Part shown: one piece after another, positions 9,984 through 50,477 of the stretch
How the letters are laid out: each line of letters opens with the position of its first letter
How positions within the stretch are numbered: position 1 is the first letter of the stretch
DNA from: Deltaproteobacteria bacterium
GTDB lineage: Bacteria > Myxococcota_A > Polyangia > JAAYKL01
NCBI GenBank assembly: GCA_016937015.1
Contig: JAFGWT010000273.1
Coordinates: forward strand, 22,878 to 86,877
Direction: 5' to 3'
Length of the DNA: 64,000 nucleotides
Made by a program: the position numbers and the translations under genes
Notes under the pieces: model-generated
Databases searched by the model: none
What the model was told of the DNA's origin: nothing
The model's input: the letters and a program-made list of their open reading frames with translations, nothing else

Positions 9984-10095
9984 TTCAGTTGCCGCCTCTC
10001 CATCCCCAAAAAAAGCATATTTTTTTTCAGTCGGTTCTCTCCGATGTGATGTCCGGGATTTGTTCCTGTAAATACCTCAAAAGGAGCGTGACTGA

Positions 10096-11172
10096 ATGAA
10101 AATTTATGCAAATTATCTGATTCTCGCCGCCTGCTATATGCTGGCAGGCACCACAATTGGCTGCGACGGCGAAATTTTTGATACCGTTGAACGAAAAAGC
10201 GATACCGAAACTGGCCAACCTCCCCAAAACCAGGGTTCAAACATGTCGCAGACCCCGGTTGATATGGTATCCAGTGCGGAGTCGCCTGTTCAAACTGTTG
10301 TGGATACAGATTCCGCTGCGGGTAATACGCCTGAAACTGGTGCCGCCCTATCCACCGATAGCGCTGCGTTGTCCAATAGCGTTACAGACACTGCTGAACC
10401 GGCATCGTCCCCAAACGCCAATGCCGAAAATTGTGTGGCGCCGTCCAGAGAGGACTACATGGCCAGCCATGGTATCACCGCCGATAACAGAGATTTGACT
10501 GATCCCAATGTGGTAACGGCAAAGGCGTATACCCAGCTTTTCATTTTTGACAAATCCGGCAGTATGGATAGCGCATGGAATGAAGATGGCGGTTCAAAAT
10601 GGGACATTGCCCGAGATACTATGATTGCCGCCGTTTCTCCATTTCAACAGTATTTAAGTGCAGGGGCCATATTTTTTTCGCTGGAGGACGGCACGCATGA
10701 AGTCGCCTTAATCGACTCAGGAAAACAAATAGACTATGCCAGCGCCACCGATTTTCTGGATATATGGGACGAAAACATGGGTATGTACGCAGCAGGTGGC
10801 GGCACCCCGCTAATGGATGCATTGGAAGCGGCCAATGATGCAATTGCCCACGCCTGCGAACTGGGTCTGTTAAACTGGCCTTTTGAAATCACTCTGATTA
10901 CGGATGGAATGCCCGATTACTGGAATTCACAGAGAGGCCTTGAACTCGTTAAGGATTGGTACGACCACGGCATTCCGACATCAGTGGTCGGCATGCCAGG
11001 TTCGGATTCCGCAACGCAGATTCTGTCGGACATCGCCGCTGTTGGAAGTGGCGGCGAACTCCAGATTGATGGCACTGTGGACAATTCCACCGCTACGGCA
11101 GAAGAAATTGTATATACACAGGACAGTACTGTGACTGATTTTGAAGAAGATATGATGCTGCTGGTGGAATAA
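10096..11172 (+). CDS. Lipoprotein with von Willebrand factor A (vWA) domain and Ser/Thr/Asp-rich linker
   Basis: Lipobox ..TIGC; MIDAS motif LFIFDKSGSMD; acidic S/T-rich spacer after the signal peptide. Confidence 0.6.
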   Translation: MKIYANYLILAACYMLAGTTIGCDGEIFDTVERKSDTETGQPPQNQGSNMSQTPVDMVSSAESPVQTVVDTDSAAGNTPETGAALSTDSAALSNSVTDTAEPASSPNANAENCVAPSREDYMASHGITADNRDLTDPNVVTAKAYTQLFIFDKSGSMDSAWNEDGGSKWDIARDTMIAAVSPFQQYLSAGAIFFSLEDGTHEVALIDSGKQIDYASATDFLDIWDENMGMYAAGGGTPLMDALEAANDAIAHACELGLLNWPFEITLITDGMPDYWNSQRGLELVKDWYDHGIPTSVVGMPGSDSATQILSDIAAVGSGGELQIDGTVDNSTATAEEIVYTQDSTVTDFEEDMMLLVE

Positions 11173-34196: not shown

Positions 34197-34328
34197 CCCT
34201 TCCTGGAACTTTTTCGAAAAGTCAGATGTCGATGTAGTCATGCCGATTGGTGCGGATTGGCAGTTGCGGGCAGGATAATTGTGGAATCCAAATTGCAATT
34301 CGAAAAGAGCAACATATACTCACACCAA

Positions 34329-37300
34329 ATGAATCGAATAGGTGTTATATTCAGTCTGCTCTTCTCCCTCTTCGTTCCGGCATATGGGCATACCCATTCA
34401 AAAGCGCTTTCCGCTCTGCAGCGCCAGCCCGATTCGCGGTTTGCAGACTTGCTTGTGTTGCAGATTTTTGACGAATATGCCACGTCAGGAAGAGTCGTTA
34501 TTGAAGCGGAGCTGAATGCAGCACTGAGTCTAAAAAGGCTTGATTGGGCAGCAAGGGACCGTGTCCTCTATCTGTTGGCACAACTGAAAATGATGTCGGG
34601 GGATTACAACACAGCCAACCGGATGTTTGCCGAATTGGGATTTATCACGGACTGGACAATTGTTGGACCGTTCCCACATGAATCCGGTTCAGGAATTACC
34701 GACACGCTTTCGATTAACAGTGAAGACAGCTCCACAACGCCATTAAACCTGCAGGTTGCCCCGAACTGCGTCCCGTCTCTGTCTCGCGGTCCCTGTCAGT
34801 TTTCGACCAGCTGGATGAGCCACAGCATGGGACGAATCAGTTTCGAGCCACTGTTTTCGCCCTCGTCAAACATCTGTACACTGGCGCAAACAACTGTACA
34901 CGTTGACAATGCTGGCGTGCATCAACTGGTTTTTGGCGCTGGAGGGCAGAGTCAAGTCACAGTTGACACAAAAATTGTCCTCACTGACACAAGTGAGTAT
35001 GACGCGGATATTAACCGCCATGCACTGCAGATACCGCTCGAAAAAGGGGCTCACACACTGACAGTTAAGATCTGCAGCGGTGAATCTGGCAGAGCCGGAT
35101 TTTATGCACGTCTGATTGCGCCGGAGGGCCGACCACTGCATTCAGCGAAAGCCAGTCCGTTTGAACCCGTTTCAATGGCAACTCCCGTAAACGCGCCTAA
35201 TAAGTCACCACTTAAGAAAATGACGCCAAGTGAAAAGAGCCGTCTCGCGCATTTGGGATTTTTCGCTCAGTATGCCAAGCATACCGGCGCTGTTGGGAAA
35301 GACACAACTGTATTCGATGCCGCCAGAGCGGCATGTACGTCACTGAAAACCGTTTCATTTTGCAAAACATTTGCCGAATTGTCGGGCGACATCAATACAA
35401 AGCTTCAAGCATGGCGAAACGTTCTTTCCGCCACACCGGAAAACAGGGAAGCAAAACTGGCGATACTGTTACTTCGCGCGCGACACCAGCTTGATTCAGA
35501 TGCTGCTTATGCCCTTCAGGAACTGGCAACTGCAAAAGATGCAGACATCAATTCTCGTTGTGCCCTTCTCGAATATTTCACAATGAATCTTCCACAGACG
35601 GCGCAGCATTTGCGAGTGGCGCATATGGATGATGCCGACATATTGCCTGGAGAGATTCGGTGCATCGCAGACAATCTGAAAGGTATTCCTGTGGACCTGC
35701 ACACGGCTGCACTTTTAGACATGGCGCTGCGGATTGATTTTACGGATTATGATTATCAAATACGCCGAATGAATATGCATGGCCGCACCCTTGAAAACGA
35801 GCTTCCCAAAGTGGCGGCTGCGTGGAAGGGACTTGGCGCGCCACCTGTGCACGGGGTTCGGGCACTCATTGAACTCGCCCGCGGCGCTGGCCTCAACCGA
35901 CTGGCATCCGACCTCGCCAAAGATACACGCCTTTATGCTCCTGCTGTGAGTCTGTATCGCCAGGATGCGGGTAAAGCAGCCCTTTTTACCGATCAGTCCA
36001 TGGGGATAAGCCTGTTAAAGGAAGCATTGGCTCAGTCCCCTCAGAATAAGTCACTAAGAGACTACATCGCGCACATCGAACCCCAACGCAGTTTTGAATC
36101 AGCGTATATTGTGCCCCCGTCAGATTTTTTAAACAACAAACAAAAATGCATATCTCAAAAGACAGATTGTTACCTGGTGAACAACACCATGGTTCGGGTG
36201 CATGAAAACGGCCTTGCATCGTCAGTCTCTCAAATAGTTGTTGCCATCGCTTCTGCAGAGGGAACACGTCAATGGCAGCAATACAGTGAGCAGTTTTCAT
36301 CTAATCAAACAATCCAGGTTCTGGGTGCGCGAATTTATCGTGCAGATGGCAAAGTGGAGCAGGCAACGGGACAGGCCACGTTCCCCGTATCGGAACCATG
36401 GTATCGCCTGTACTACGATATAGAAGCAGAAGTGGTTGAGCTACCCAGCCCTGAAGTGGGTGACGTTGTCGAATTTCAATTTCGAATTGACGATATTGGC
36501 AGCGAGAACATGTTTGGCGAATACTTTGGCACAATCGTTCCAATCAACGCCGAACTTCCGGTCGAATCGTTTCAACTGGTTATCATGCGCCCCAAATCGC
36601 TTCCGCTTCAGTTTGAATCCAGCAAGGCGGTTCGACGCGACGAATGGATTGAAAATGAAACGGTCACCACCGTGTTCAGTGATAAAGGAATTAAAGCAAT
36701 TCCCGACGAACCTGCAGCACCTGGTGCGATGTCGCTGGTCCAGTATGTGCATGCCACCACTTGGACATCGTGGGCCAAAATGGAAGCGTGGTATCGCGCA
36801 CTTATTAAGCCCCAGTTAAGACACGATGCCGAATTAAAAGAACGTGTGTTGGCGCTTACGCACGGGGCAAAATCCAGGCAGGAAAAAATTGCTGCTATTT
36901 ATAACTGGGTTACAACAAATATCCGCTACGTTGGGCTGGAATTTGGAATTCATGGCTATAAGCCATACAGCACCACACAGGTGCTGACCAGGGGTTTTGG
37001 CGACTGTAAAGACACAGCATCGCTCATCGTCACAATGTTAAATGAAGCGGGAATCGACGCACATGTGGCATTGGTCCGAACCCGAACAGCCGGGGAATTG
37101 AATACTCGTTTTCCGTCGCTCGCATTGTTTAACCATGCGATTGCATATGTTCCGGAATTTGATCTTTGGCTGGACGGCACTGCAACATTTCACGGCACAA
37201 CGGATATGCCGTTCGAAGACCAGGGTATCAACGCCCTGGTGATTGGGCTGGCACCGATGTTACCCAGACAAACCAAAACTCTGAGGCCAGAAGACGCCAC

Positions 37301-37934
37301 GTTTGTGCAACACGATGTAATATCGCCAAACCCGGATGGCAGCGCAGCTATCGCGAGCACAGTTACCGCTTCCGGATCCCCTTTTGCGCCATGGCTGAGA
37401 AGCACATTTGCATCTGCGCAACGACAGGATATACTGGAAAACCATTTTTCTGACATGTATTCCGCTGTTACAATAGACCATGCTGACTTTACAGAATTTA
37501 GCCCATTGTCCCCCTCCCCTGTCATAACATTTCAAGGAAACATCCCATCACTTTTTATATTAAAAAGGGGTATTGCGACATTCCGTGCAGCGCCGCCCCT
37601 GAATCTGAAGCAGAAATTCGCCCCCATTGCTAAACGGCAGCATGCGCTGCAAATTGGCCCGGCTCGAAAAGCAACCTACACGGTCCGATATCTGTTGCCG
37701 GCTGGATTTGTTTCAACAACTGAGCCATCCGTCGCGTCAGTTCACACAAAATTTGGTACATATCAACGGGAAATCCAATCCGAAACAAATTGCATCACGG
37801 TGTCGCGTACCTTCGAGATCAATCAACCCCTTGTGCCTGCGTCGCAATATGGTGAATTTGTCAAATTCACTCGTGATGTGGACGTACTCGAAAAAGCGCA
37901 GATTTCAATAAAACAACAGGAGATCACACCGTAA
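34329..37934 (+). CDS. Large secreted multidomain protein with transglutaminase-like cysteine-protease-fold domain (Cys-His-Asp present) and DUF3857-like architecture
   Basis: Signal peptide MNRIGVIFSLLFSLFVPAYG; TGase core GFGDCKDTASLIVTMLNEAGIDAHVALV..FNHAIAYV..WLDGTA. Confidence 0.6.
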   Translation: MNRIGVIFSLLFSLFVPAYGHTHSKALSALQRQPDSRFADLLVLQIFDEYATSGRVVIEAELNAALSLKRLDWAARDRVLYLLAQLKMMSGDYNTANRMFAELGFITDWTIVGPFPHESGSGITDTLSINSEDSSTTPLNLQVAPNCVPSLSRGPCQFSTSWMSHSMGRISFEPLFSPSSNICTLAQTTVHVDNAGVHQLVFGAGGQSQVTVDTKIVLTDTSEYDADINRHALQIPLEKGAHTLTVKICSGESGRAGFYARLIAPEGRPLHSAKASPFEPVSMATPVNAPNKSPLKKMTPSEKSRLAHLGFFAQYAKHTGAVGKDTTVFDAARAACTSLKTVSFCKTFAELSGDINTKLQAWRNVLSATPENREAKLAILLLRARHQLDSDAAYALQELATAKDADINSRCALLEYFTMNLPQTAQHLRVAHMDDADILPGEIRCIADNLKGIPVDLHTAALLDMALRIDFTDYDYQIRRMNMHGRTLENELPKVAAAWKGLGAPPVHGVRALIELARGAGLNRLASDLAKDTRLYAPAVSLYRQDAGKAALFTDQSMGISLLKEALAQSPQNKSLRDYIAHIEPQRSFESAYIVPPSDFLNNKQKCISQKTDCYLVNNTMVRVHENGLASSVSQIVVAIASAEGTRQWQQYSEQFSSNQTIQVLGARIYRADGKVEQATGQATFPVSEPWYRLYYDIEAEVVELPSPEVGDVVEFQFRIDDIGSENMFGEYFGTIVPINAELPVESFQLVIMRPKSLPLQFESSKAVRRDEWIENETVTTVFSDKGIKAIPDEPAAPGAMSLVQYVHATTWTSWAKMEAWYRALIKPQLRHDAELKERVLALTHGAKSRQEKIAAIYNWVTTNIRYVGLEFGIHGYKPYSTTQVLTRGFGDCKDTASLIVTMLNEAGIDAHVALVRTRTAGELNTRFPSLALFNHAIAYVPEFDLWLDGTATFHGTTDMPFEDQGINALVIGLAPMLPRQTKTLRPEDATFVQHDVISPNPDGSAAIASTVTASGSPFAPWLRSTFASAQRQDILENHFSDMYSAVTIDHADFTEFSPLSPSPVITFQGNIPSLFILKRGIATFRAAPPLNLKQKFAPIAKRQHALQIGPARKATYTVRYLLPAGFVSTTEPSVASVHTKFGTYQREIQSETNCITVSRTFEINQPLVPASQYGEFVKFTRDVDVLEKAQISIKQQEITP

Positions 37935-40900
37935 TGAGCAATCTTCCCCAATGGGCTAATTCCGCGCGAGTGATGGCTCTAATATTCTTTGTGCTGGGGT
38001 GTGCCGCCGCTCATTCTCCTGCACACAAAACAGAAACATTAAGCGAAAACCGGACTTTTCTTTCTGCGCCAACAATACCACAGCTGGAGAAGCAATTTAA
38101 GTCCAGCAACCGTGAAGGCGATCTGTTTGTTTTGGCCACTCTTTACGACAAGACTGGTCGCCCTGAATTGGCTTTCAACACATATATTCAGGCAATGGAT
38201 GCAGCCAGTATATCCCCCGGACTTTACTGGGAAGGCATAGGTGCAGCCATTGGCATTGTCAATATCCGGCGCCGGGTAAGGGACTTTGAAAACAGGATTT
38301 ACCCGCATCTCATGAAATGGTCGGCTTCCCCCGGTGCGCTTGCGCCGGAAGCGTTGTATCAGTTACGCACGCTAACGTTCTCCTTCGCACTAAAAAAAGG
38401 AAAGATGAAGCACGCCAGCCAATTGCTGAATCAAACCGGTTGCATCACAGATTGGCTGGTCGCCGGCCCCATCGCGACCGACAAGCGCGGCGCAATTAGC
38501 AGCAAACAGCTTCTGGATTCACGCGTGTGGCCGAGGGAAATTGACGCGGGTGCCGGCCGTCCAAATATGCCTGTGGTTCATAAATCGCTTGGAATCTGCC
38601 AATTGACTGCGCCCCCGGTATCCTCTGCCAGTACAGGCACAATCATTGGCACAACAGCAATACATGTTTCATCGACGGGAGATGCCAGTTTCAGACTGCA
38701 TTCAACATCTGATTCAAAAATTTTTATTAACGGCCATCAGGTGTATTCCCAGCAGAGTCAGACACGTTGGCTTCCGGAAACCCGTTGGTTTACCGTATGG
38801 CTTCCCGCAGGCCACCACCAGATTACCGTGCAGGTATTTTCACCCACTTTTGAACCATCTTTTTCGTTGAGCGTATTGTCATCCAGTCAACGCCCACTGA
38901 CTAACAACAGCACAACCCTGCCAGTGACTACAGAATACAAACCCAATAAAGGCATTACACGCATTGATTCAAAGATGACGGGTGAGTCAACCATTCTGGC
39001 GAGAATGCAATATGCGCTTTGGAACGTGGATCCATACGAGTGGCAAGAATATGCAAAAATGCTCGATGAGAAGTTGCCGCTGCACCGGTTATTCATCGCG
39101 GCGTATCAGCTGATGACTCCGTTCAACGCGCCCGAGGTTGCCATGGAAAGCGCCAGACATCTCTACGCTGGCGTGTTATCAAAAATGCCTACTGCGTTCG
39201 AAGCGTCGGTTTATCTGGCCAAACAGGCGCACAGCAACGGCCGCACCGAAGAATCGATTGGCATGCTTAAAAACGCAATCGCCGCGATGCCTGATGAGCC
39301 AATGCTGCCACTGGTGCTTACTGAAATTGCGTTTGAAAAGGAATGGATACCCGAAACGAGAAAATACCTCTCAATGGCAACCGATATGCTCGGTGACAAC
39401 TGCGAAACCCTGCAATGGAGATATGCTGTTGCGTTGCATGAAAAAAAATTTGATGCGACAATGCAGCTTGCTCACTCAATCAGCCAATGCGCCGCATCAT
39501 CCACTGATTTGGCCACAGAACTCACCAGAGAGGGAGATTTTATGGGCGCCTCAAATATTTTGTGGCGACAGGCCAAACGGCAGCCCAATTCGATGTCGGC
39601 ACAATTAGATGCAGCGCTGAGTTTTGCCCGTTCCGGTGCCCCGGATAGAGGCATCGAATTATTAGAGATTACCCACAGGCAATTTCCACTTTCCAACACG
39701 CCAGTTTTACACCTGATTGACGCGTATCTTGCTTCCAACAAAACTGAGAAGGCACAGGTACTATGCCACCTACAGCACCGAATGCCATCTGATCCTCAAA
39801 CACTCCTTGCGTGTGAGTCGGTCGAACTGACAAACCCGCTTGGTATGTATCGGGTGGATGGACTGAAAACGGTCAATCAGTTTATCAAGAGAGATGACAA
39901 ACCGAAATCGGACTTTTCATGGGTACTGGATCGGACAGTTTACGCGGTTGACAGGTTTGGCACAGGTAATCAATTGGTGCACTCGATTGGATACATCAAT
40001 TCACAGGATGCGGTCTCCGAGTACGGCGAGTTGAGTATTCCTTACGGATCAAAAGTTTTGCAGGCGCGTGTCATCAAACCATCGCTTGAGCAGTTTTATC
40101 CAACACTGGTCGAAGGTAAACCGGGGCTATCGCTGCCCAATCTGGCCGTCGGCGATTTTGTCGAATTGGAAACAATAAGTGCCATTCCTGCGCATTCTGT
40201 ATTTCCAGGCGGGTTCGACACCGAGCCCTTTTATTTCCGGGACTTTAATTCGGCATTCGTAAGATCGGAACTGATAGTCGTTGCGCCTGAATCGTTTAAT
40301 CTGCAATTCGATACACGAGGCGCCGCTCCTCCACCTGTCCATCATTCACTGAACGGAATGCAGGTCGTCACTTTTCGAACCAGAGACCAGCATCCGTTGC
40401 GAATTGAACCGGACACACCGGATGCCCGGGAGTTTTTACCTTCAGTGCGCATTACAGCCCACGCGTCCATTGAATCGGTATGTCAAAATATTAACGAACA
40501 GTTGTATGCGATGTCACAATGGTGTCCGGAGATTGACCAGACGATAACTCGCAGCATCGTCAAACAAAACAATCGCGACGCAAAAATCGAGGCGATATAC
40601 AATTGGATCTCTTTAAACATTGAGGATGACATGATACTGTTTGAGCCTGCCGCCCATGTACTAAGCCGAAAAAGAGGTAGTCGTGCCCGGCTGTTTATAC
40701 AAATGCTCGCACAGGCAAATATCGATGCAGAACTGGGGTTGGCAATGACTGCGTTCGATGACCATACACCCGCTACCGTTGCTGATGTGAACCGCTATAC
40801 GGTTCCTGTGGTTAAATTGCCGAACGGTAAATGGATCAGTTTTCAGGAACGACATGCTCCTTTAGGGACCTTACCTTCGGAGTTGCGACATCAGCCGGTT

Positions 40901-41590
40901 TTGCTGCCCAAAAATTGCCGTATTGAAAAGACAGATGCGGGCACTGTCCCATTTGAAAGTTCCACTGTTACCGCCGAACTAAACATTGATCAACAGGGGA
41001 ACGCAACAGGAACAGTAACCGAACTGATTGAAGGCGATACCGCAGCCATACTTCGGTCGCTACTGGAGAGTCCCGAATCCGAACACCGGAAGCTTTTCGA
41101 GGAACATTTACTGTCGGCTCTTTTCCCGGATGCAGTGCTCACAGCATTTTCCGTGGAAAACACGCGCGAGGTTCAACTACCACTCAAAATAGTATACAAT
41201 GTAGCCGTTTCACAGATCATCAAACAGGCCAATAATGTCGCACGCATGTTCGTTCCTATGCCAGTCAGTTTTGAACAGTTCACCAATGGCATTGCCAGTC
41301 GTGAATTGCCACTTGTATTGGCAACATATCTAAAAAACAGCCGTAAAATACATTTAAACCTGCCGTCCAATATGATCATTCAACAGCTGCCCGAAAATCA
41401 CTGTGAACAATCAGCCAACACCGTCGCGAGCTATTGTATGCAATTCAAATCCTCAGAAGACTCAATATACATAGATATGGAAGCCATTATTAATATCCAG
41501 CGAATCCCGGCCAGACACTACACGGATTTTCAGAATTTCATACTGACAACCAAACAAATGAACAGTTCATCTATTGATATCCAATACTAA
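37934..41590 (+). CDS. Paralogous large lipoprotein with degenerate (Cys-less) transglutaminase-like domain
   Basis: Lipobox FFVLGCAAA; N-terminal region homologous to upstream gene (G(F/C)ITDW.(V/A)GP); TGase position reads KRGSRARLFIQMLAQANIDAELGLA (no Cys/His); start overlaps upstream stop (TAATG). Confidence 0.6.
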   Translation: MSNLPQWANSARVMALIFFVLGCAAAHSPAHKTETLSENRTFLSAPTIPQLEKQFKSSNREGDLFVLATLYDKTGRPELAFNTYIQAMDAASISPGLYWEGIGAAIGIVNIRRRVRDFENRIYPHLMKWSASPGALAPEALYQLRTLTFSFALKKGKMKHASQLLNQTGCITDWLVAGPIATDKRGAISSKQLLDSRVWPREIDAGAGRPNMPVVHKSLGICQLTAPPVSSASTGTIIGTTAIHVSSTGDASFRLHSTSDSKIFINGHQVYSQQSQTRWLPETRWFTVWLPAGHHQITVQVFSPTFEPSFSLSVLSSSQRPLTNNSTTLPVTTEYKPNKGITRIDSKMTGESTILARMQYALWNVDPYEWQEYAKMLDEKLPLHRLFIAAYQLMTPFNAPEVAMESARHLYAGVLSKMPTAFEASVYLAKQAHSNGRTEESIGMLKNAIAAMPDEPMLPLVLTEIAFEKEWIPETRKYLSMATDMLGDNCETLQWRYAVALHEKKFDATMQLAHSISQCAASSTDLATELTREGDFMGASNILWRQAKRQPNSMSAQLDAALSFARSGAPDRGIELLEITHRQFPLSNTPVLHLIDAYLASNKTEKAQVLCHLQHRMPSDPQTLLACESVELTNPLGMYRVDGLKTVNQFIKRDDKPKSDFSWVLDRTVYAVDRFGTGNQLVHSIGYINSQDAVSEYGELSIPYGSKVLQARVIKPSLEQFYPTLVEGKPGLSLPNLAVGDFVELETISAIPAHSVFPGGFDTEPFYFRDFNSAFVRSELIVVAPESFNLQFDTRGAAPPPVHHSLNGMQVVTFRTRDQHPLRIEPDTPDAREFLPSVRITAHASIESVCQNINEQLYAMSQWCPEIDQTITRSIVKQNNRDAKIEAIYNWISLNIEDDMILFEPAAHVLSRKRGSRARLFIQMLAQANIDAELGLAMTAFDDHTPATVADVNRYTVPVVKLPNGKWISFQERHAPLGTLPSELRHQPVLLPKNCRIEKTDAGTVPFESSTVTAELNIDQQGNATGTVTELIEGDTAAILRSLLESPESEHRKLFEEHLLSALFPDAVLTAFSVENTREVQLPLKIVYNVAVSQIIKQANNVARMFVPMPVSFEQFTNGIASRELPLVLATYLKNSRKIHLNLPSNMIIQQLPENHCEQSANTVASYCMQFKSSEDSIYIDMEAIINIQRIPARHYTDFQNFILTTKQMNSSSIDIQY

Positions 41591-41668
41591 TCTCCTGCAA
41601 TTTCAATAAAAAAGTATGCCAACAATTTGACTCTATGCTCTCCTGTTCAGTAGTATTGCTTACACTTA

Positions 41669-41684
41669 CTGCACCAAATAACAG
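41669..41684 (+). promoter_or_regulatory. Candidate SOS/LexA-type operator CTGC-N8-ACAG (TACTGCACCAAATAACAGGT) upstream of the LexA-family gene
   Basis: One mismatch to CTGT-N8-ACAG, 28 nt upstream of the start codon; the box consensus is lineage-specific, so this is a weak call. Confidence 0.25.
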
Positions 41685-41711
41685 GTTGTTGACCGTGGAG
41701 GAAACTTTCAT

Positions 41712-42335
41712 ATGCAAGGACTGACAAAAAGACAGGAAAAAGTGCTCGATTACATCACCAGCTCAATTACGGAACGCGGTTATCCGCCTACGTTGAGGGA
41801 GATTGGGCGCCATATGGGAATTCGATCAACGAATGGGGTCAACGACCACCTGCGTGCTTTGGAGCGCAAAGGATATTTAAAACGCGAAGATATGAAATCC
41901 CGCGCACTCAGACCTGTAAACATGGAAGACAAAAAGCAGTCCGATACGGTCAAAATTCCAGTTGTAGGCCGTGTCGCCGCGGGCCAGCCTGTGCTGTCAG
42001 AGCAGAACATTGAAGACTACGTTACAGTCGATCGTTTTCTTATCGGTAATACAAAAGAAGTTTTTGGGATGTGGGTTCACGGTGATGCCATGTTGCAGGC
42101 GGGAATACACAACGGCGATTTTATTTTTGTAAAAAAACAGATGTTCGCCGAAAAAGGTGATGTCGTGGTTGCATTGCTTGGTGATAACGCCGCAGTTCGT
42201 TATTATCATCCGGAGCGTGACCATATTCGCTTTGTACCAGCCAACACCAATTGCGCGCCAATCATGGTTCGACGTCAGGATTTCCTGCCCATGCAGCTAC
42301 TGGGTGTCGTTACCGGCATTTACAGACGCCTGTAG
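41712..42335 (+). CDS. lexA: LexA-family repressor with both catalytic dyad residues substituted (Ser->Ala, Lys->Arg)
   Basis: LexA wHTH N-domain (LTKRQEKVLDYI..GYPPTLREIG..), linker with VVGRVAAGQP (Ala-Gly site kept), S24 domain; aligned to E. coli LexA GMSM->GDAM and VTVKRL->AAVRYY. Confidence 0.8.
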   Translation: MQGLTKRQEKVLDYITSSITERGYPPTLREIGRHMGIRSTNGVNDHLRALERKGYLKREDMKSRALRPVNMEDKKQSDTVKIPVVGRVAAGQPVLSEQNIEDYVTVDRFLIGNTKEVFGMWVHGDAMLQAGIHNGDFIFVKKQMFAEKGDVVVALLGDNAAVRYYHPERDHIRFVPANTNCAPIMVRRQDFLPMQLLGVVTGIYRRL

Positions 42336-42371: not shown

Positions 42372-43493
42372 TCAGAGTCTCTCTCTTGTTTCGAAAATCG
42401 CTGCGTATATGTTTGCGATGTCTGAACTGGTCAAAGCAACCGGGTGGTTTTTCAATCGTTCGATGTTCACCTGTTCCATTAAACGCATCATCTGTGTCCC
42501 GGAGATGTTGAATCGCATCTCTCCCAAAACCCGGCGGTATGCGTCGAGCATACATTTTTGAAAGGCCATAAAACCCGCAACAAAATCACTGCCCCATGGC
42601 ATCAACACTTTATCAAGCGCTGCCGAACTGTCTCTAAAGAAGCCATATTTTTGCGCCATAAGCTGTATCAGCGGCCCCATCACCAGCAGCACAGCGATCC
42701 CATGAGGTATTCCCAGCTCAGCAGTAAGACCGTAGCTCAGTGCATGTCCCGCAGTTGTTTTGGTAATATTTATGGCTTTGCCAGCCAAATTCGCAGCCCG
42801 GAGCAAATTCTGCCTCGCTGCATGGTGCGCTGGAGTCGTCAGAACAAGCGTTAAATTGTCAGGAATTATCTGCAAGGCCGACAGGGCGTATGACCGTGAC
42901 GTATCGGTGGCCTTCGGTGACCAGAATGACTCAATCGATTGACAAAACGCATCCACGCCACTTGCGATGGTCACCGACGGTGGACATGTAATGGTAAGGG
43001 ACGCATCCAGCACCGTCCAGTCAGGAAGCAACGTGTCGTGAGCGACGGAATACTTACGCCCATTCTGGTAAGCAACGGCAAAATGGGTTGCCTCACTACC
43101 GGACCCGGCTGTCGTTGGCGCGACCCAAAATAACGGCCTGTCTTTCCCACGAATCTCATTTCGCAATAAATCAAACGCGGATGTGCCCATTGCGATGGCA
43201 AGCAGCAGTTTCGAGGTGTCGATAACGCTGCCGCCGCCAATTGCAACGATCAAATCGAGCTGCCGCAGCGGAAGTGTTGTCGACAGACTGGCAATGAAGT
43301 CTATGTCGGGATTAGAGGGAATATTGCTGATACAAATCAGATTTTGAATATCAATATCATGCTGTATCGCGGACAGTGCTGCCGCAAAGGCGCGTCCATG
43401 CAAAACAAGGACATTTTTAAAATGCCGTTCAGACGCAGCAGCAAGCATGCGCCGGATAACGCCTTCACCAACTGCATCAGTATCTGCGTTCAT
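42372..43493 (-). CDS. Group III iron-containing alcohol dehydrogenase; putative phosphonoacetaldehyde reductase (FomC/PhpC-like)
   Basis: Fe-ADH motif GGGSVIDTSK; start overlaps upstream stop (ATGA 43490-43493); last gene of the PEP-mutase operon. Confidence 0.6.
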   Translation of the reverse strand: MNADTDAVGEGVIRRMLAAASERHFKNVLVLHGRAFAAALSAIQHDIDIQNLICISNIPSNPDIDFIASLSTTLPLRQLDLIVAIGGGSVIDTSKLLLAIAMGTSAFDLLRNEIRGKDRPLFWVAPTTAGSGSEATHFAVAYQNGRKYSVAHDTLLPDWTVLDASLTITCPPSVTIASGVDAFCQSIESFWSPKATDTSRSYALSALQIIPDNLTLVLTTPAHHAARQNLLRAANLAGKAINITKTTAGHALSYGLTAELGIPHGIAVLLVMGPLIQLMAQKYGFFRDSSAALDKVLMPWGSDFVAGFMAFQKCMLDAYRRVLGEMRFNISGTQMMRLMEQVNIERLKNHPVALTSSDIANIYAAIFETRERL

Positions 43494-44635
43494 TTAATTA
43501 TTTTATCCATAAATGTGTGTTTATTGTCGATTGGCGTTGTGGTTGGACGCCCCAGATCCTCGCGAGCGCCCTTCTTTATCACAAATTCAATAAATGCAGG
43601 GCCCTGCTTCTTCCTGATGTCATCCATCGCGGTGTGCAATTCAGTAATGCTCCGGACGGTCACCGTCGACTTGTATCCACAGGCACTGGCAATTGATGCG
43701 AACGAAATTTGCCTGCCAATGGTGGGCTGCCCCCCAACCGAATCATGTGCGCCGTTATTCAGTACAAAATGCAAAAATGACGATGGGGCGTATTGCGCAA
43801 TCAGCGGCAGTGCACCCATGTGCATCAGCACAGCGCCATCGCCGTCAATGCACGCAACGGGGCTATCCTGGTAGCCGGCAATTCCCAATGCAATCATTCC
43901 GGCATGGCCCATCGATCCCACGGTTAAAAAATCCCGGTGGTGCCCCTGATTCAGCCTCTCTCGTATCTCAAAAATTTCACGGGAAGTCATTCCGGTTGTG
44001 GAGACAATTTTTGTTTTCTCGTTTACCATTGCCAGAATTGATTCCACCGCCTGCTCACGGGTCATCAGTTCGGTTTCGGCCACGTCTGGCACTGCCGTAT
44101 CTGCGCCGGCGACACTGTACTTTCCAAAAGCTCCCTTGGGCACAAGCAATAACACCGGGGTGGACGCTGCCTTCATTTGCCGGGAAAGCCGCTCTATCTG
44201 CAATCGGACTTCATCCGTATTTGACGCCAGTATTTCATGTGGATACCCGATGGCGCTCATTAAATCCATTTGCACTTTTCCCTGTTTTACATGTTGCGGT
44301 TCGTCTTTTATCCCCGGCGCGCCGCGCCAGCCAATCATTACAAGCATGGGGATACTGTATACATCCGGATCAGCCAGAGACAATAACGGGTTAATCGCAT
44401 TTCCAATGCCTGAATTCTGCATGTAAACCAGTCCCGACTCTCCCGTTGCCAGGTGGTACCCTGTCGCTAAACCAATCGCCGCGCCCTCATTGGCTGCGAT
44501 AATGTGCTGCCGCTCTGGAAATTGATCCGTAACGCAGGCGCAGAATTCCTTTAACAGGGAATCCGGCACTCCCGTAAAAAAGCTGAAGCCGCTGGCCTTA
44601 AGTAGATTAACAAAACTGGACGGATCTAGCATCAT
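43490..44635 (-). CDS. ppd: ThDP-dependent phosphonopyruvate decarboxylase
   Basis: N-terminal [13 protein letters not shown]; ThDP-binding GDGA..NN ([31 protein letters not shown]); coupled to neighbours by ATGA overlaps. Confidence 0.7.
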
Positions 44636-45933
44636 GCCCCTCCCAGCGGAATCAGCTCAAGAATTTCCCTGATGGGCAGCAATCCGGATCTCGCCTCGTA
44701 AGCCCGCTGATGAGTCAGTATACTGCGAGCGGTTTGCATCATGGCCGGGTATGCGCTGCGTATAAGCTGGTTTGCGTAAATGATCACATTGGCCCCTGCT
44801 CTTGAGAGCTCGTCTTCGTAAATGGTGTCATATGTTGTCGGCACAACAACAACTGGCACTTTGCGACTGAAATTTCGATAAGCATCAAGAAATGCGAGGA
44901 TCTCATCGGGAGTCTCCTGTTTGGAATGAATCATTATGCCATCCGCACCGGCAGCAATATAGCTCCTGGCCCGTAACAGCGCATCGTCAATCCCCTGTTT
45001 GAGAATCAGGCTTTCGATTCGCGCGATAATCATAAAGTCATCGCTTACCTGGGCGCGCTTCCCCGCAGCAATTTTCTGTGTAAAATGCTCAATACTATCC
45101 TGATTTTGTGGCACTTCCAGCCCATACAGGGAATTTCTTTTAAGACCTATTTTATCTTCAATAATGACAGCGGACACACCCAGTCGCTCCAGCGTGCGGA
45201 CCGTAAAAATAAAGTGTTCGGTTTTTCCCCCGGTATCGCCATCGAAGATGATGGGTTTGGTGGTCACTTCAAGCAGATCGTTAATATTGGTTAACCGTGC
45301 TGAAATATCGACTGCTTCTATATCGGGCTTTCCTTTTGCGGTGGAATCTGTCAGGCTGGATGCCCACATTGCATCAAATTCGCGACGTTTGCCATTGACT
45401 TCCACATACGTCTCCTCAACGATGCGACCGGTTAGCCCGCTATGCGCCTCAATAACGCGAACCACTTCTTTTGCCTGAATGAGCCGCCGCAACCGCAATC
45501 GACGAACGTCGGGACTGATGCCAACTTCACGGATAGCCTTGTTTAATTGCGTGGAGGAAATACCTGTAGTGTATGAAAGCTCAACAAGCTGCCCCCCCCA
45601 TTGCTGCAGAGTATCGATAACCTGCTGCCGGGTTTCCTTCTGAACCCCCTCTTTCCAGTCATCGCCATGAACCACAAAGTCCGGACGAAGTTGTTCAAGA
45701 TTAGGACGGTAATCCAGAGTCTCCTGCGCAACAACACGGCTTACACCTTTTAATCCCTCAACCACTGCTTTCCGCTGTTCAAATTCCAGATACGGCAGGC
45801 GTTTGTAACTTGCGATGGCTCTGTCTGTCAGCAGACCGACCGTTAATTCCCCAAGTTTCGCTGCTTCCCTGATGATATTCATGTGACCGGGATGCACTAA
45901 ATCGGCACTCATCCCTACATACACGGTTTTCAT
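44632..45933 (-). CDS. Bifunctional TagD-like cytidylyltransferase / phosphoenolpyruvate phosphomutase (Fom1-like fusion)
   Basis: Residues 1-135 align to glycerol-3-phosphate cytidylyltransferase ([32 protein letters not shown]); residues ~140-433 are PEP mutase ([40 protein letters not shown]). Confidence 0.8.
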
Positions 45934-46210: not shown

Positions 46211-49200
46211 ATGTCTGATTTTTTTTATACCGTTTTTATCTATCCATTGGAATTTCTGATGAAGTGTGTGATGGAAACGGTTCTGAATAATACGGGAGAC
46301 CCCATTCTTTCTCTCGTTGCTGTAAGCGCGTTTGTTTCAATTGGGTCATTACCGCTGTATCACATTGCCGAGAAATGGCAGGACAACGAACGGGCCATTC
46401 AGGAAAAGCTTCAACCCAAAATAAGAGAATTTAAAAGCGTATTCAAAGGCGCCAGCCTCAACGCTTATATTCAAACGCTGTATCGACAAAACGAGTATCA
46501 TCCGGTAATGGCGATTCGTGCTGTATTGGGGATACTGATTCAGATTCCCTTCTTCATCGCCGCTTACCATTTGCTATCCGAATATCCGGCATTCGAGGGC
46601 GTTTCCGCTATATTTTTTAACGATCTGGGTCGCCCGGATGGTTTGATCAAACTTGGAAGTTTAAGTATCAATGTGCTTCCTTTCCTGATGACTGGCGTCA
46701 ATATTCTGTCCGCAGTGATTTACGGCAAGAAACTTGGGACAAAGGAAAAAATTCAAACATATGGCATCGCCGGCGTATTTCTTGTGGCGTTGTATTCATC
46801 GCCGGCATCTCTTCTCTTTTACTGGACATCAAACAACATTTTCAGTCTGGCCAAAAATGGCATATATCGACTGATTTATCCTGACGGAAGAATTAAATCC
46901 ACGCAGCAGAATGAAACACGGATCTGGCCAATATTTCTTCGGATTTCCGCGTTGCGCCCCTCGACATGGGGACAGATAACTCTGTTTGTTTTAACGCTGG
47001 CGCTGTATCTCATTGCGCCGGAATTCACAAAGCCTAACTCTGAAACACAGGGACAGCTTTATGGCCTGATCTACACCGTGTTGCTAATGCTGGGCGGATT
47101 GACGATCGCTGGCGCGCTGGCCAATAAAACAATGCGACGCAGCGCCAGAAATACGACTGCCGCGGTTTATGGCATCGTTGTTCTTATTTCATTGGGACTG
47201 CAACTGGTATGGATGCTGAATGTGGTGCCGGACGTTAAATTCACCCAATACGCCGCCAATAGCCTGTTCGCTTTAATGTTTTTTAACGGCGCGCGCAGTG
47301 TTTTCGCTCTCTGGTCCAACTGGATAGCAAAAAACGAACTTGAAGTCACCACACGCCCCGGGACGCTGTTTGCGCTTGCCGTGCTGACCCTCCTGACCAC
47401 AATTTTTATTGCTGTCCCGTTGCCGCTTGTTTCAACCGCCAGTGTTGGTGATTTCGAAAAATCGCTTTCTTATTATCTATTTTTTATGCTGATGCTGGTT
47501 GTTTCCTTTTTTATACTCAGCTGCGTTGTGTATTCGTATCTGTCCAGAGCATCCCGTAGCCTCCTTATCTACATCATCAGTTTCCTTGCAATCCTGTCAC
47601 TGGTCAATGCCTTCGTGTTTGCAGGCGAATACGGTGATATGAGCAATTTCAATTTCGAAAATGGTCTGCCGGAAGAACCCGTCGCCAAAATCGTAAATAT
47701 GTTTGTACTCATCATCATTGGCGGCGGACTCATTCTGCTGTTTCTCAAACGTTTGTACAAATGGCTGTTGCCAGTGTGGATCATATGCCTGCTGTCAATC
47801 GGTGTTGTGACTGTCAGCGAAAGCCATCGGTTTTACCAAAAGAGTCAAAAGATATCCCTTAAGTTCGCGCAGGCTTCGCAGCTTGACAAGCAATTTGTTT
47901 TTTCGAGGACGCAGCCAAATGTTCTGGTGATCATGCTTGACCGATTTGTTGGAGGTATGGTGCCCAAAGCATTTGAGCTGGCGCCGGTGTTAAAGAGTCA
48001 GTTTGAAGGATTCACGTGGTATCCGCAATATTTTTCCGATGGTGCATTCACCATTTTAGGGGTGCCTTCGCTGATGGGGGGATGGGAATATCATACAAAA
48101 GAAGTGCAATATACGCGCACGACAATGCCACTCAAACAGAAGCTGGACGAGTCTGCCAGAGTACTGCCATACAATTTCAACAAAGCCGGTTATCAAACAA
48201 CCGTTTTTGCCGATCTTGAGGCATACTTTGATCCCGAAAACAGGAAATACATTGAGCGAACAAAATTTGCGTCATTGAAAGCCCAATACAAGGACCTTTG
48301 GCTGCAGGAGCATCAAAAAAAACTCAAAGAAGATAATGTCAGAGGAAAGCTGGCTATCTTTGGACTTTTCCGAACAGCTCCACCGATATTGCGAAACTAT
48401 ATTTACGACAATGGTGACTGGTTACTCGGTTCGAAGGCAAAAAACACTGACATGGGAAACAAAAGCATCATAGGGGACAAACAGGTATCATTCCTGACAA
48501 CAAATGATGCGCAGATAAATCGTGCTGTTGAAGGGTTCAGCACGCTATACTTTTTGCCTCGCCTGTCAGCAACATCCGACAAAGCGCATAAACAGTTTTA
48601 CTATTTCTCAAATGCATTCACCCACGAACCGGTTATAGCGAACGCGAATTTTGACTTGTCTGTTCACGAGCGAATTTTCTACCCAAGGGATGTGTACGAC
48701 GAGTTTGATGAAAGTATGTATACACTGCAGCATCTGTACACCGACACAACCGCCCTTGTGGCGATTGGAAAATGGTTCGAGTGGATGAAGCAGAACGATG
48801 TATACGACAACACAAAAATAATAGTGGTTTCCGATCATGGCAGAAATGTTTACGATCCTGTTTTAAAATCTCAGAAAATCATCAGTTCACTCAACGCTAA
48901 AAAGCCCGATGCGTCATGGTTTCATGGTTTACTCATGGTGAAGGATTTTGGGCAAAAAGGGGCCATGCGAAAAAGCAATCAGTTTCTCACGACGTGTGAT
49001 GTTCCGTGGCTGACCATGAAAGACATTGTCACCAATCCAATCAACCCGACATCGAAAAAGAAAATCGTGTTCAACGCAGACAGGTATCCATTCTCCATGT
49101 TTTTCACGCCACCGATGATCTGGCAGCAGACAAAATATAAATACAAGGTGAAAGATATTTTCGAGATTCAGCGTAAAAATGATGTCCTGGATCCGGCGAA

Positions 49201-49225
49201 ATGGAAGCGCGTTAATGTTAAATAG
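46211..49225 (+). CDS. Fusion membrane protein: N-terminal YidC/Oxa1-family insertase core (5 TM), additional TM region, C-terminal sulfatase/LtaS-like (alkaline-phosphatase superfamily) extracytoplasmic domain
   Basis: Residues ~3-225 align to the YidC core (LPLYHIAEKW..LQPKIREF..LYRQNEYHP..LIQIPFFIAAYHLL..FFNDL..VLPFLMTGVNIL..LLFYWTSNNIFSLAKNGIYR); C-terminal VLVIMLDRF..FTILGVPSLMGG..IIVVSDHG matches the LtaS/EptA/sulfatase fold without a CxPxR sulfatase motif. Confidence 0.65.
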   Translation: MSDFFYTVFIYPLEFLMKCVMETVLNNTGDPILSLVAVSAFVSIGSLPLYHIAEKWQDNERAIQEKLQPKIREFKSVFKGASLNAYIQTLYRQNEYHPVMAIRAVLGILIQIPFFIAAYHLLSEYPAFEGVSAIFFNDLGRPDGLIKLGSLSINVLPFLMTGVNILSAVIYGKKLGTKEKIQTYGIAGVFLVALYSSPASLLFYWTSNNIFSLAKNGIYRLIYPDGRIKSTQQNETRIWPIFLRISALRPSTWGQITLFVLTLALYLIAPEFTKPNSETQGQLYGLIYTVLLMLGGLTIAGALANKTMRRSARNTTAAVYGIVVLISLGLQLVWMLNVVPDVKFTQYAANSLFALMFFNGARSVFALWSNWIAKNELEVTTRPGTLFALAVLTLLTTIFIAVPLPLVSTASVGDFEKSLSYYLFFMLMLVVSFFILSCVVYSYLSRASRSLLIYIISFLAILSLVNAFVFAGEYGDMSNFNFENGLPEEPVAKIVNMFVLIIIGGGLILLFLKRLYKWLLPVWIICLLSIGVVTVSESHRFYQKSQKISLKFAQASQLDKQFVFSRTQPNVLVIMLDRFVGGMVPKAFELAPVLKSQFEGFTWYPQYFSDGAFTILGVPSLMGGWEYHTKEVQYTRTTMPLKQKLDESARVLPYNFNKAGYQTTVFADLEAYFDPENRKYIERTKFASLKAQYKDLWLQEHQKKLKEDNVRGKLAIFGLFRTAPPILRNYIYDNGDWLLGSKAKNTDMGNKSIIGDKQVSFLTTNDAQINRAVEGFSTLYFLPRLSATSDKAHKQFYYFSNAFTHEPVIANANFDLSVHERIFYPRDVYDEFDESMYTLQHLYTDTTALVAIGKWFEWMKQNDVYDNTKIIVVSDHGRNVYDPVLKSQKIISSLNAKKPDASWFHGLLMVKDFGQKGAMRKSNQFLTTCDVPWLTMKDIVTNPINPTSKKKIVFNADRYPFSMFFTPPMIWQQTKYKYKVKDIFEIQRKNDVLDPAKWKRVNVK

Positions 49226-50477
49226 CATCCTGTTATATTTGGATCCCGGTTCCGGAAGTATGTTGCTCTCGGCGGTGGCGGGCATTATTGCAACGCTCTA
49301 TTTCCTGATAAAAGGGGTATTCTTCAAGTTGCTCAATATGCCCGCATATCTGTCGGGAAAAAGAACAAAATCGGCTATCAAAGACAAAATTGTGTTTTAT
49401 TCAGAGGGCGGCCAGTACTGGAACGTTTTCAAGCCCATTATTGAAGAACTGAATCACCGCGAAATATCCTGCCTCTACCTTACAAGCAAAGAGAACGACG
49501 AAGGTCTTTCGTGCGGACTTGATCACGTTAAAACGAAGTATATTGGCGAGGGAAACAAAGCCTATTTCGTTCTCAATACGCTCAGTGCGGAACTGCTAAT
49601 CATGACCACGCCGGGAGTTGATGTTTTGCAAATCAAACGCAGCAGAGGTGTAAGGAAATACGTACACATAACCCATTCGGCCGGTGGTTGCAGCGGATAT
49701 GCCACCTATGGTGTAGACTATTACGATGTGGTCCTGACAGGAGGAACCGGCGACAAGGCAATGATTGAGGATTTGGAACGCGCTCGCGGCACTCACAAAA
49801 AAGATATTAGAATCATCGGATGCACATATCTTGATGTTCTCAGAAAAAAACTGCGTGAAACCGATGCTGAGCTTTATTTTGAGCGCGTTCGACCCACCAT
49901 TATGCTGTCGCCCACGTGGGGATTGCACGGGTTGCTCAGAAAATCCGGTGAAACTATTTTAAAACAGCTCACTTTGCTCGACAGGTACAATATAATTGTC
50001 AGACCGCACCCCCAGGCGTTTATTTCAGATAAAGATGTAATGGAAAAACTTACGGCACTGTTTCCCGACAGTGAAACCTTACGGTGGGATAACGCGCCTG
50101 ATGGCCTGAATTCAATGCGCCAGTCCGATATGATGATTAGCGATTTTTCAGGGGTTCTGTTTGATTACATTTTCCTTTTTGAAAAGCCGGTGCTGTCATT
50201 TAAAGGACATTATGACAAAAGAGGCCACGACTCGATGGACCTCAGCGATGACCCATGGAATCTGCGCATGCTTGAAAAAACAGGCCTCTCAATTAGCCAC
50301 GATGATCTGAGCACATTGCCCGACATTGTGGAGAATCAGCTCAAAGGGGGCACAGCGATAAGCACCTTTCTCGATGAACTGCGTGATGGGATGGACAAAT
50401 ATCCCGACCTTTCCGGTATTCGCGGCGCAGACGCTGTTGAGTCACTCCTCATGGCAAACGATGCGCAAATTTCCTGA
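49179..50477 (+). CDS. TagB/TagF-type CDP-alcohol phosphotransferase (Glyphos_transf family)-like protein
   Basis: LSPTWG..(TagF YAPTWR-like), IVRPHPQ, MMISDFSGVLFDYIFL (TagF ITDYSSV.FD-like); start overlaps upstream gene (49179 or 49215). Confidence 0.7.
   Translation: MMSWIRRNGSALMLNSILLYLDPGSGSMLLSAVAGIIATLYFLIKGVFFKLLNMPAYLSGKRTKSAIKDKIVFYSEGGQYWNVFKPIIEELNHREISCLYLTSKENDEGLSCGLDHVKTKYIGEGNKAYFVLNTLSAELLIMTTPGVDVLQIKRSRGVRKYVHITHSAGGCSGYATYGVDYYDVVLTGGTGDKAMIEDLERARGTHKKDIRIIGCTYLDVLRKKLRETDAELYFERVRPTIMLSPTWGLHGLLRKSGETILKQLTLLDRYNIIVRPHPQAFISDKDVMEKLTALFPDSETLRWDNAPDGLNSMRQSDMMISDFSGVLFDYIFLFEKPVLSFKGHYDKRGHDSMDLSDDPWNLRMLEKTGLSISHDDLSTLPDIVENQLKGGTAISTFLDELRDGMDKYPDLSGIRGADAVESLLMANDAQIS

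Follow-up and report, generated by a model that had tools for sequence, protein, structure and literature searches.

A chromosomal lexA orthologue without the self-cleavage dyad in a Polyangia-like lineage, predicted to be uncoupled from RecA

INTRODUCTION

The switch that defines the bacterial SOS response is the self-cleavage of LexA, and engineered lexA(Ind-) mutants are non-cleavable and SOS-uninducible. Here we describe the lexA gene of a 64,000-nucleotide stretch of contig JAFGWT010000273.1 (hereafter the window), from a metagenome-assembled genome (MAG) labelled 'Deltaproteobacteria bacterium', whose product has neither of the two catalytic residues of self-cleavage. A natural counterpart is known from the cyanobacteria. 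The LexA of Synechocystis sp. PCC 6803 (sll1626) is without the nucleophilic Ser (PMC1524924); it is also without the Ala-Gly bond, its cleavage has not been seen, and it regulates non-SOS genes (PMC7567884, PMC4759255, PMC1524924). The region upstream of its gene contains no recognisable SOS box (PMC1524924). In Myxococcus xanthus, LexA directly represses about five genes, and resistance to ultraviolet (UV) light was the same after deletion of the repressor (PMC9705874). In the literature that we searched, no LexA lacking the dyad has been reported from the Myxococcota, and outside the cyanobacteria, where Synechocystis provides the example, such a protein does not seem to have been described.

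RESULTS

The window encodes a LexA protein in which both dyad residues are replaced

The gene occupies positions 41712..42335 of the + strand and encodes 207 amino acids followed by a stop codon. Its product is identical to GenBank MBN2716705.1, which carries the label 'MAG: transcriptional repressor LexA [Deltaproteobacteria bacterium]'. By BLASTP, the protein aligns over its full length with Escherichia coli LexA at 36% identity (E 1e-39). Pfam assigned LexA_DNA_bind (PF01726) to residues 1-65 with 95.4 bits and Peptidase_S24 (PF00717) to residues 83-190 with 85.7 bits, and the NCBIfam lexA model TIGR00498 scored 202.6 bits against a cutoff of 110.95, which identifies a full-length equivalog. 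The winged-helix LexA DNA-binding domain comprises residues 1-69 (41712..41918, + strand). A UmuD or phage CI-type S24 protein was also considered and was ruled out, given the presence of the LexA winged-helix domain and a score of only 61.8 for the UmuD model NF007621, under its cutoff of 110. The AlphaFold2 model of the protein has a mean predicted local distance difference test score (pLDDT) of 83.6, with values >90 over the C-terminal domain, and this domain superposes at ~2.0 Å on structures of LexA C-terminal domains. When PDB chains were searched with phmmer, the best full-length matches included the engineered S119A mutant 1JHH, and another of the top solved structures was 8S7G, the S125A variant of Pseudomonas aeruginosa LexA.

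The register of the protein was taken from three independent alignments, namely BLASTP with E. coli LexA, phmmer with PDB chains, and MAFFT with 120 homologues. All three place GDAM opposite GMSM, so that Ala126 stands at the position of the E. coli nucleophile Ser119; Val-Arg163 opposite Val-Lys156 (VRYY opposite VKRL in the BLASTP alignment), so that Arg163 stands at that of the general base; and Ala90-Gly91 opposite the scissile Ala84-Gly85. Two of the defining features of LexA and of MEROPS family S24, the Ser nucleophile and the Lys general base, are thus replaced, and a further LexA feature, the Ala-Gly scissile bond, is kept. On the + strand, Gly124, Asp125, Ala126 and Met127 are encoded by GGT, GAT, GCC and ATG, with the Ala126 codon at 42087..42089. 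Arg163 (CGT, 42198..42200) is the last residue of Asn159-Ala160-Ala161-Val162-Arg163 (42186..42200, + strand), in which E. coli Glu152, Thr154 and Lys156 have become Asn, Ala and Arg, respectively. The codon CGT is at least two base changes away from any Lys codon. The equivalent of the scissile bond, Ala90-Gly91 (GCG GGC), lies at 41979..41984 of the same strand, inside the sequence VAAGQP (residues 88-93). A preliminary description of this DNA, drawn up from its letters, had reported Ala (gcc) at the Ser119 position and Arg (cgt) at the Lys156 position, with an otherwise conserved VAAGQP linker, DNA-binding domain and S24 fold; the three alignments, Pfam and TIGR00498 are in full agreement with it. 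It had also conceded that a better alignment might restore a Ser/Lys pair, and no such pair appears in a register that is identical in all three.

The gene is preceded by two tandem DUF3857/transglutaminase-like genes of ~1220 amino acids each (34257-37934 and 37934-41590, together 34257..41590, + strand), which carry TPR/DUF3857/transglutaminase-core domains and which we used as a synteny marker. We refer below to related loci by L numbers and to homologous proteins by P numbers. The pair directly precedes lexA in loci with Ala and Arg at the dyad positions (the window, L001, L002 and L126), and it also precedes the canonical Ser/Lys lexA of the sister loci L003 to L006; the genes downstream of lexA vary between loci. 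Because this neighbourhood is common to both kinds of loci, we consider the window gene to be the lexA orthologue at its ancestral position, and not an added paralogue. By sequence, fold and synteny, the window protein is LexA.

We also looked for a second lexA. E. coli LexA, UmuD and the window protein, used as tblastn queries against the 64 kb, revealed no further LexA, UmuD-like or other S24 open reading frame. In a scan of a genome collection for lexA, from which the best 80 of 600 stretches were considered, the clade assemblies JAKQNG01 and JAFGVO01 had one lexA each and none further among those 80, a weak negative since whole genomes were not covered; complete Sorangium genomes likewise had one lexA each among the best 80 loci. 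The named canonical NCBI matches of at least 63% identity included none in the MBN accession range of the clade MAGs, which is again a weak negative, as most matches came without an accession. These searches point, weakly, to the window gene being the only lexA of its genome.

The Ala/Arg pair defines a conserved lineage

The 120 best homologues all come from Myxococcota or 'Deltaproteobacteria' MAGs. In the MAFFT alignment, Ala and Arg occur together in 12 of them and Arg only in one more, and the remaining 107 have canonical GDSM/Lys or close variants. After masking of the active-site columns, a core clade of 11 sequences (the window, P0001-P0009 and L008; 70-97% identity) was recovered as monophyletic (neighbour-joining bootstrap 99%); all of its members have both Ala and Arg, and it joins P0037 and P0099 at 62%. 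Its nearest relatives are canonical Myxococcota LexA proteins (65-72% identity), among which it nests. A search with the C-terminal domain alone yielded no further members. In all, the Ala/Arg pair is common to about 13 related sequences of 70-97% identity.

Across eleven clade loci (the window and ten others), the Ala at the Ser119 position is encoded by GCC, GCG or GCA, and the Arg at the Lys156 position by CGT, CGG, CGA, CGC, AGG or AGA. A sequencing error at the two codons, which the preliminary description had named as a possible objection, is therefore not borne out, the ten other loci having both residues through different codons. Between the window and L001, whose proteins are 96% identical, the proportion of synonymous differences (pS) is 0.70, which is saturated, against a proportion of non-synonymous differences (pN) of 0.026; for the C-terminal domain, pN is 0.039. 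L003 was left out of this comparison because of its unequal length and misalignment. Such a low pN at saturated pS argues that lexA in this lineage is functional and strongly constrained by purifying selection.

Substitutions are concentrated in the C-terminal domain

The Ala/Arg clade and its canonical relatives hardly differ over residues 1-69, the recognition helix STNGVNDHLRALERKGY included. The sole clade-specific change in this region is Met10 to Lys, and the pN of the DNA-binding domain is 0.013 at saturated synonymous sites. In the C-terminal domain, we counted as clade-specific any position at least 85% conserved in the canonical relatives and different in the clade, and found eight (in E. 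coli numbering): Ala90 to Ser or Leu, in the cleavage-site region; Leu113 to Met or Phe, a RecA contact (Met in the window LexA); Ser119 to Ala, in the active site; Ile149 to Leu; Glu152 to Asn, another RecA contact; Thr154 to Ala; Lys156 to Arg, in the active site; and a C-terminal Thr to Met or Leu. Six of these (Ala90, Leu113, Ser119, Glu152, Thr154 and Lys156) belong to a set that combines the RecA contacts, the catalytic strand and residues 79-95 of the cleavage-site region (Fisher p = 0.034).

In cryo-electron microscopy (cryo-EM) structures of RecA with LexA, a pocket formed by LexA Phe111, Leu113 and Val153 receives RecA Phe203, and LexA Asp150, Asp151 and Glu152 face a basic patch of RecA (PMC9926225). 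Two of these RecA-contact determinants, Leu113 and Glu152, are altered in the clade. In three clade members, the scissile Ala has been exchanged for Thr, Ser or Pro; Gly85 is invariant. Lineage-specific substitutions in the C-terminal domain are about twice as numerous in the clade as in the canonical sisters (23.5 vs 11.1), with no excess in the N-terminal domain (2.0 vs 1.3).

The ancestral LexA box is degraded and a leader element is conserved among close relatives

Upstream of the gene lies a predicted sigma-70-type promoter, TTGACT (41627-41632) and TAGTAT (41651-41656) with an 18-nt spacer (41627..41656, + strand). Of the 116 Myxococcota-family loci with enough upstream DNA, 110 have the arrangement TTGAC...GTTCAG-TAnnnT ahead of lexA (87/87 of those examined first and 23/29 of those added later); GTTCAG abuts the 5' side of the -10 hexamer, usually 12-13 nt past TTGAC. 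The M. xanthus SOS box, CTRHAMRYBYGTTCAGS, has this GTTCAG as its right arm (PMC9705874). In the window, the sequence ATGCTCTCCTGTTCAG (41635..41650, + strand) represents a remnant of the ancestral Myxococcus-type LexA box, with its right half GTTCAG (41645-41650) intact and its left half degraded. In a matrix built from 70 distinct canonical lexA promoter boxes, position -5 is always C and position -6 frequently A, so that the pattern reads AC-N4-GTTCAG. The canonical boxes score 11.6-24.2 bits, and the window box, at 7.7 bits, lies under all 70 of them; the boxes of other clade members score 7.2 (L001), 10.5 (L008) and -2.3 bits (L009). At least eight sister-clade loci have GGTAAACC without exception as the left arm; in the clade, this arm varies even between close members. 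Together, the low scores and the variable left arm suggest that the auto-operator is eroding in parallel with the protease. AC-N4-GTTCAG has a single match in the window; it stands at the 3' end, ahead of a stop codon, and is consistent with chance.

Between the -10 hexamer and the ribosome-binding site (GGAGGA, 41697..41702, + strand, 9 nt before the ATG and conserved in the clade) is a leader element, TTACTGCACCAAATAACAGGTTGT (41666..41689, + strand), which contains CTGC-N8-ACAG (41669-41684). A 24-nt block, TTACTGCACC(A/C)AATAACAG(G)TTGT, is common to the window, L126, L127, L001 and L129, with diverged flanks. Conservation of the block at saturated pS argues for a genuine footprint. Its carriers are exclusively relatives of at least 92% identity; the element is absent from L008, L130, L131 and L009, which include clade members of 72-86% identity, and from all canonical loci. 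No second copy was found in the window or, outside the lexA leaders of close relatives, in 131 loci. The leader has no Rfam match at E <=1 and only a 6-nt inverted repeat was seen in it. In the element, the left arm CTGCAC agrees with CTRHAM of the M. xanthus consensus, and the right arm does not agree with its counterpart.

The preliminary description had suggested that CTGC-N8-ACAG could be the operator of this LexA. The element is indeed conserved, in that five relatives of at least 92% identity share it; it is, however, unlike the family LexA box and absent elsewhere. We therefore regard it, on the evidence of sequence conservation, as a candidate lineage-specific operator confined to the sub-clade with identities of at least 92%. 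Its identification as an E. coli-type SOS box was rejected, because the pattern is a frequent one, scores <0 with the family LexA-box matrix and has no other copies; with 18 occurrences of CTG-N10-CAG in the window and 11.4 expected, the presence of CTGC-N8-ACAG is by itself weak evidence.

Two further features of this region may be mentioned. A perfect 6-nt inverted repeat, CCTGTT (41642-41647) and AACAGG (41680-41685) with 32 nt between the arms, ties the remnant LexA box to the leader element and may be coincidental. The -35 hexamer is extended upstream by GCCAACAATTTGAC (41618-41632), conserved in the dyad-less clade and present as CCACAACAATTTGAC in canonical sister loci; the role of this extension may be that of an UP-like element or of an additional binding site.

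Other LexA homologues without the dyad

To find more dyad-less LexA proteins, we surveyed the 150 nearest 50%-cluster representatives. Four of them (P0245, P0273, P0275 and P0353) have Ala/Arg and have lost the cleavage site, and P0306 has Gly/Arg at the dyad positions. Three more (P0233, P0266 and P0100, the last being among the first 120 homologues) keep the Ser and the Ala-Gly bond and differ in the dyad by Lys to Arg only. These eight divergent homologues are 43-65% identical to the window LexA, and in most of the divergent homologues the cleavage site reads Pro-Gly, Ala-Asp or Pro-Asp. A crude neighbour-joining tree divides the dyad-less sequences into about six groups that stand apart from one another. 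The dyad change seen most often is Lys to Arg, present in each group but one, the single sequence P0326, which keeps the Lys and has Asn at the Ser position. Since P0233, where the dyad differs by this change only, lies basal to the window clade, Lys to Arg was apparently the first step.

Several of these homologues have distinctive surroundings. In the homologue of L117 (3327-3944), the cleavage site is Ala-Ala, the Ser is replaced by Gly and the Lys by Arg; in that of L119 (242-817), the Ser is replaced by Arg and a 14-amino-acid deletion takes out the Lys region. Each is followed by a 438-amino-acid protein with two cyclic nucleotide monophosphate (cNMP)-binding domains, and the GTTCAG box is gone entirely from both promoters. 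P0273, in a prophage-like or integrative and conjugative element (ICE)-like region, adjoins genes for SSB, RadC and a DEAD helicase. One locus of a dyad-variant homologue is L135, at 10001-10774. P0100 combines Gly117 to Ser and Lys156 to Arg with a retained Ser119, and its promoter (L133, about 1430-1460) has a perfect sister-type box, TTGACATGGTAAACCGTTGTTCAGTATAAT; this state would fit either a change of very recent date or a function that survives Lys to Arg by itself.

Genomic surroundings and host lineage

Immediately downstream of lexA is a phosphonate-biosynthesis cluster (42372-45933 on the - strand and 46211-50477 on the + strand) with genes for an Fe-alcohol dehydrogenase, a thiamine pyrophosphate (TPP) enzyme like phosphonopyruvate decarboxylase, and a phosphoenolpyruvate (PEP) mutase fused to a cytidylyltransferase. 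It is followed by a 1004-amino-acid YidC(60KD_IMP)-sulfatase fusion and then by a glycerophosphotransferase-like gene. L001, L126 and L129 hold an amino oxidase or a sulfatase at that place, so the cluster looks like an insertion. In L126, whose LexA belongs to the 90% cluster of the window protein, the flagellar genes fliD and flaG (within positions 1-507) lie 8-10 kb upstream of lexA. As flagellar genes are unexpected in a host whose LexA groups with those of the Polyangia and Myxococcota, the taxonomic placement of the lineage is uncertain; the best explanation is that the host belongs to a small, uncultured, Polyangia-like lineage ('Deltaproteobacteria bacterium').

DISCUSSION

From these data we infer that the window LexA has lost self-cleavage, continues to function as a repressor and is uncoupled from RecA. 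To the reading as a whole, that of a DNA-binding, repressing LexA that is unable to cleave itself and is therefore insulated from RecA-induced inactivation, we give a probability of roughly 0.65; the loss of self-cleavage, taken alone, we hold to be more probable than that. The protein would not hydrolyse its own Ala-Gly bond, because the Ala that has replaced the Ser cannot be a nucleophile and the Arg that has replaced the Lys cannot be a general base. The preliminary description had likewise predicted a loss of autocleavage, soundly in view of the chemistry of the Ser-Lys dyad, and had suggested either a constitutive non-SOS regulator or a protein cleaved in trans; the conserved lineage and the positional orthology with canonical lexA had escaped it. 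Without self-cleavage there would be no RecA-triggered inactivation; filaments of RecA on single-stranded DNA (ssDNA) would be unable to inactivate this LexA by the canonical SOS route, and very probably the usual SOS signal does not switch it off. Its S24 domain, with the fold kept, would now be a pseudo-protease and very probably dimerises, while the unchanged winged-helix domain would bind DNA and make the protein a transcriptional repressor. Its activity would then have to be set in another way, such as by expression level, a partner protein, modification or general proteolysis. The small regulon of M. xanthus LexA and the unchanged UV resistance of the deletion mutant make it plausible that a loss of inducibility is tolerable in this phylum.

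Several observations weigh against this reading. As regards target genes, no site in the 64 kb attains the score of a canonical LexA box, and no recA or SOS gene is present in the window or in the fetched loci. For the window sequence taken alone, the excess in relative rate falls short of significance (16 vs 12 changes). The cleavage loop is largely kept in the window sub-clade (Gly80, Arg81, Val82, Gly85, Pro87, Leu89, Glu91 and Asn93), and the replacement residues are not drifting: both have stayed constant while synonymous sites turned over, from which it follows that they are held by selection. The retained Ala-Gly bond and loop, taken with the maintained Ala and Arg, suggest that the pocket and the loop still have a role. 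A divergent second LexA, a UmuD or another S24 peptidase able to cleave in trans may also be encoded elsewhere in the genomes of the clade.

One such role would be that of a substrate or partner in trans, in which an active S24 protein, either a second LexA or a UmuD-like protein, cleaves the window LexA at its Ala-Gly bond or forms heterodimers with it, and so modulates the SOS response. The retention of Ala90-Gly91 with its invariant Gly, and of much of the cleavage-site loop, would suit such a scheme, as would an active S24 protein encoded in the genome outside the parts that were searched. Kim and Little are said to have found in 1993 that an active C-terminal fragment cleaves S119A or K156A LexA intermolecularly in vitro. 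Nevertheless, we think this unlikely, given the lack of another LexA or UmuD-like open reading frame in the 64 kb, the single lexA per clade assembly and per complete Sorangium genome among the best 80 loci, and the lack of a named canonical match of at least 63% identity in the clade accession range. Moreover, the window gene occupies the orthologous lexA locus, and the scissile Ala has itself been replaced by Pro in one clade member and by Thr or Ser in others. Somewhat less probable still, in our view, is RecA sensing without cleavage, in which the loop would serve as a permanent pseudo-substrate that binds the filament reversibly, so that LexA is titrated off its operators or acts as a modulator of the RecA filament. 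Non-cleavable LexA mutants of E. coli and P. aeruginosa do hold RecA filaments for cryo-EM (8TRG, 8GMS, 8S7G; PMC9926225), and the selective maintenance of Ala and Arg through synonymous codon turnover, the largely kept cleavage loop, the retained Phe111 and the equivalent of Val153 (Ala in the whole family) all agree with such a role. Against this, the contacts themselves are altered, in that Met or Phe replaces Leu113 and Asn replaces Glu152 with loss of its negative charge, and the C-terminal domain of the AlphaFold2 model is nearer to structures with an undocked loop (~2.0 Å) than to RecA-bound ones (4.6-4.7 Å), although the latter is weak evidence.

Self-cleavage might also persist at a residual level through other residues or in a shifted register. 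This would be most surprising, since BLASTP, phmmer and MAFFT give identical registers flanked by the invariant Gly124, Met127 and Val162, there is no Ser, Thr or Cys beside position 126 (HGDAMLQAG), and Arg is no general base at physiological pH. Finally, the absence of the dyad could reflect a sequencing or assembly error at the two codons, or an incipient pseudogene. A single G-to-T change would indeed separate GCC (Ala) from TCC (Ser), but the Arg codon is at least two changes from Lys and ten independently assembled loci carry both residues with different codons. The open reading frame is intact with pN/pS far below 1, and the promoter and ribosome-binding site are conserved. Hence we rejected an artefact or decaying gene, the least credible of these explanations, on the grounds of codon diversity, a pN far below pS and the alignment of relatives.

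The preferred reading, a repressing LexA that does not cleave itself, describes a chromosomal lexA orthologue that is without both catalytic residues and is nonetheless under strong purifying selection, the replacement residues included. The lineage would either run its LexA regulon without RecA-triggered derepression or control LexA otherwise. The occurrence of Lys to Arg with Ser to Ala or Gly in several metagenomic LexA lineages suggests that pseudo-protease LexA proteins are recurrent and under-appreciated. There is also a risk for annotation, in that the label 'transcriptional repressor LexA' would pass as evidence of a functional SOS response. A bolder proposal, which we regard as speculative and improbable as a whole, is that the S24 domain, though dead as a protease, persists as a sensor that reversibly binds RecA-ssDNA or another ligand or partner, that TTACTGCACCAAATAACAGGTTGT is a new lineage-specific operator, and that the recurrent route of Lys to Arg and then Ser to Ala is a general one. 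Were this so, the sensor would provide a non-destructive and rapidly reversible DNA-damage switch, and the route would be one by which self-cleaving repressors in general turn into pseudo-protease regulators.

How, then, does the window LexA compare with the systems already known? It is most like the canonical Myxococcota LexA proteins (M. xanthus, Polyangia and Sorangium), with 65-72% identity, a near-identical DNA-binding domain, the chromosomal neighbourhood of the sister lineages and a promoter with GTTCAG in its spacer. However, where the canonical proteins have Ser119, Lys156, Glu152, Thr154 and Leu113, it has Ala, Arg, Asn, Ala and Met, and where the canonical promoters have a box of at least 11.6 bits, it has one of 7.7 bits with a degraded left half, plus the new leader element. 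The other dyad-less homologues (L117/L119, P0245/P0273/P0275/P0353 and P0306) resemble it in having the LexA winged-helix domain and S24 fold, and the pattern of Ala or Gly at the Ser position with Arg at the Lys position recurs among them. Unlike the window protein, which keeps Ala-Gly, they have lost the cleavage site as well, and they belong to separate groups of the tree and to other genomic contexts.

Synechocystis LexA is Ser-less and still a DNA-binding repressor; the window LexA is likewise Ser-less, and its repressor function is predicted from its sequence. In the cyanobacterial protein, the Ala-Gly bond is lost and loss of the Lys has not been reported, whereas in the window protein the bond is kept and both dyad residues are replaced. 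Because the Ala/Arg clade nests among Myxococcota LexA proteins, its loss of the dyad appears to be independent of that in the cyanobacterial LexA. The engineered E. coli lexA(Ind-) variants (S119A, K156A and G85D; 1JHH, 1JHE, 1JHF and 8GMS), which are among the top solved-structure matches, share with the window LexA the change of Ser to Ala, and the window LexA would be expected to work as they do. These, however, are laboratory mutants that are deleterious under DNA damage, whereas the state of the window LexA is natural, fixed under purifying selection and accompanied in its clade by changes at Glu152, Thr154, Leu113 and Ala90.

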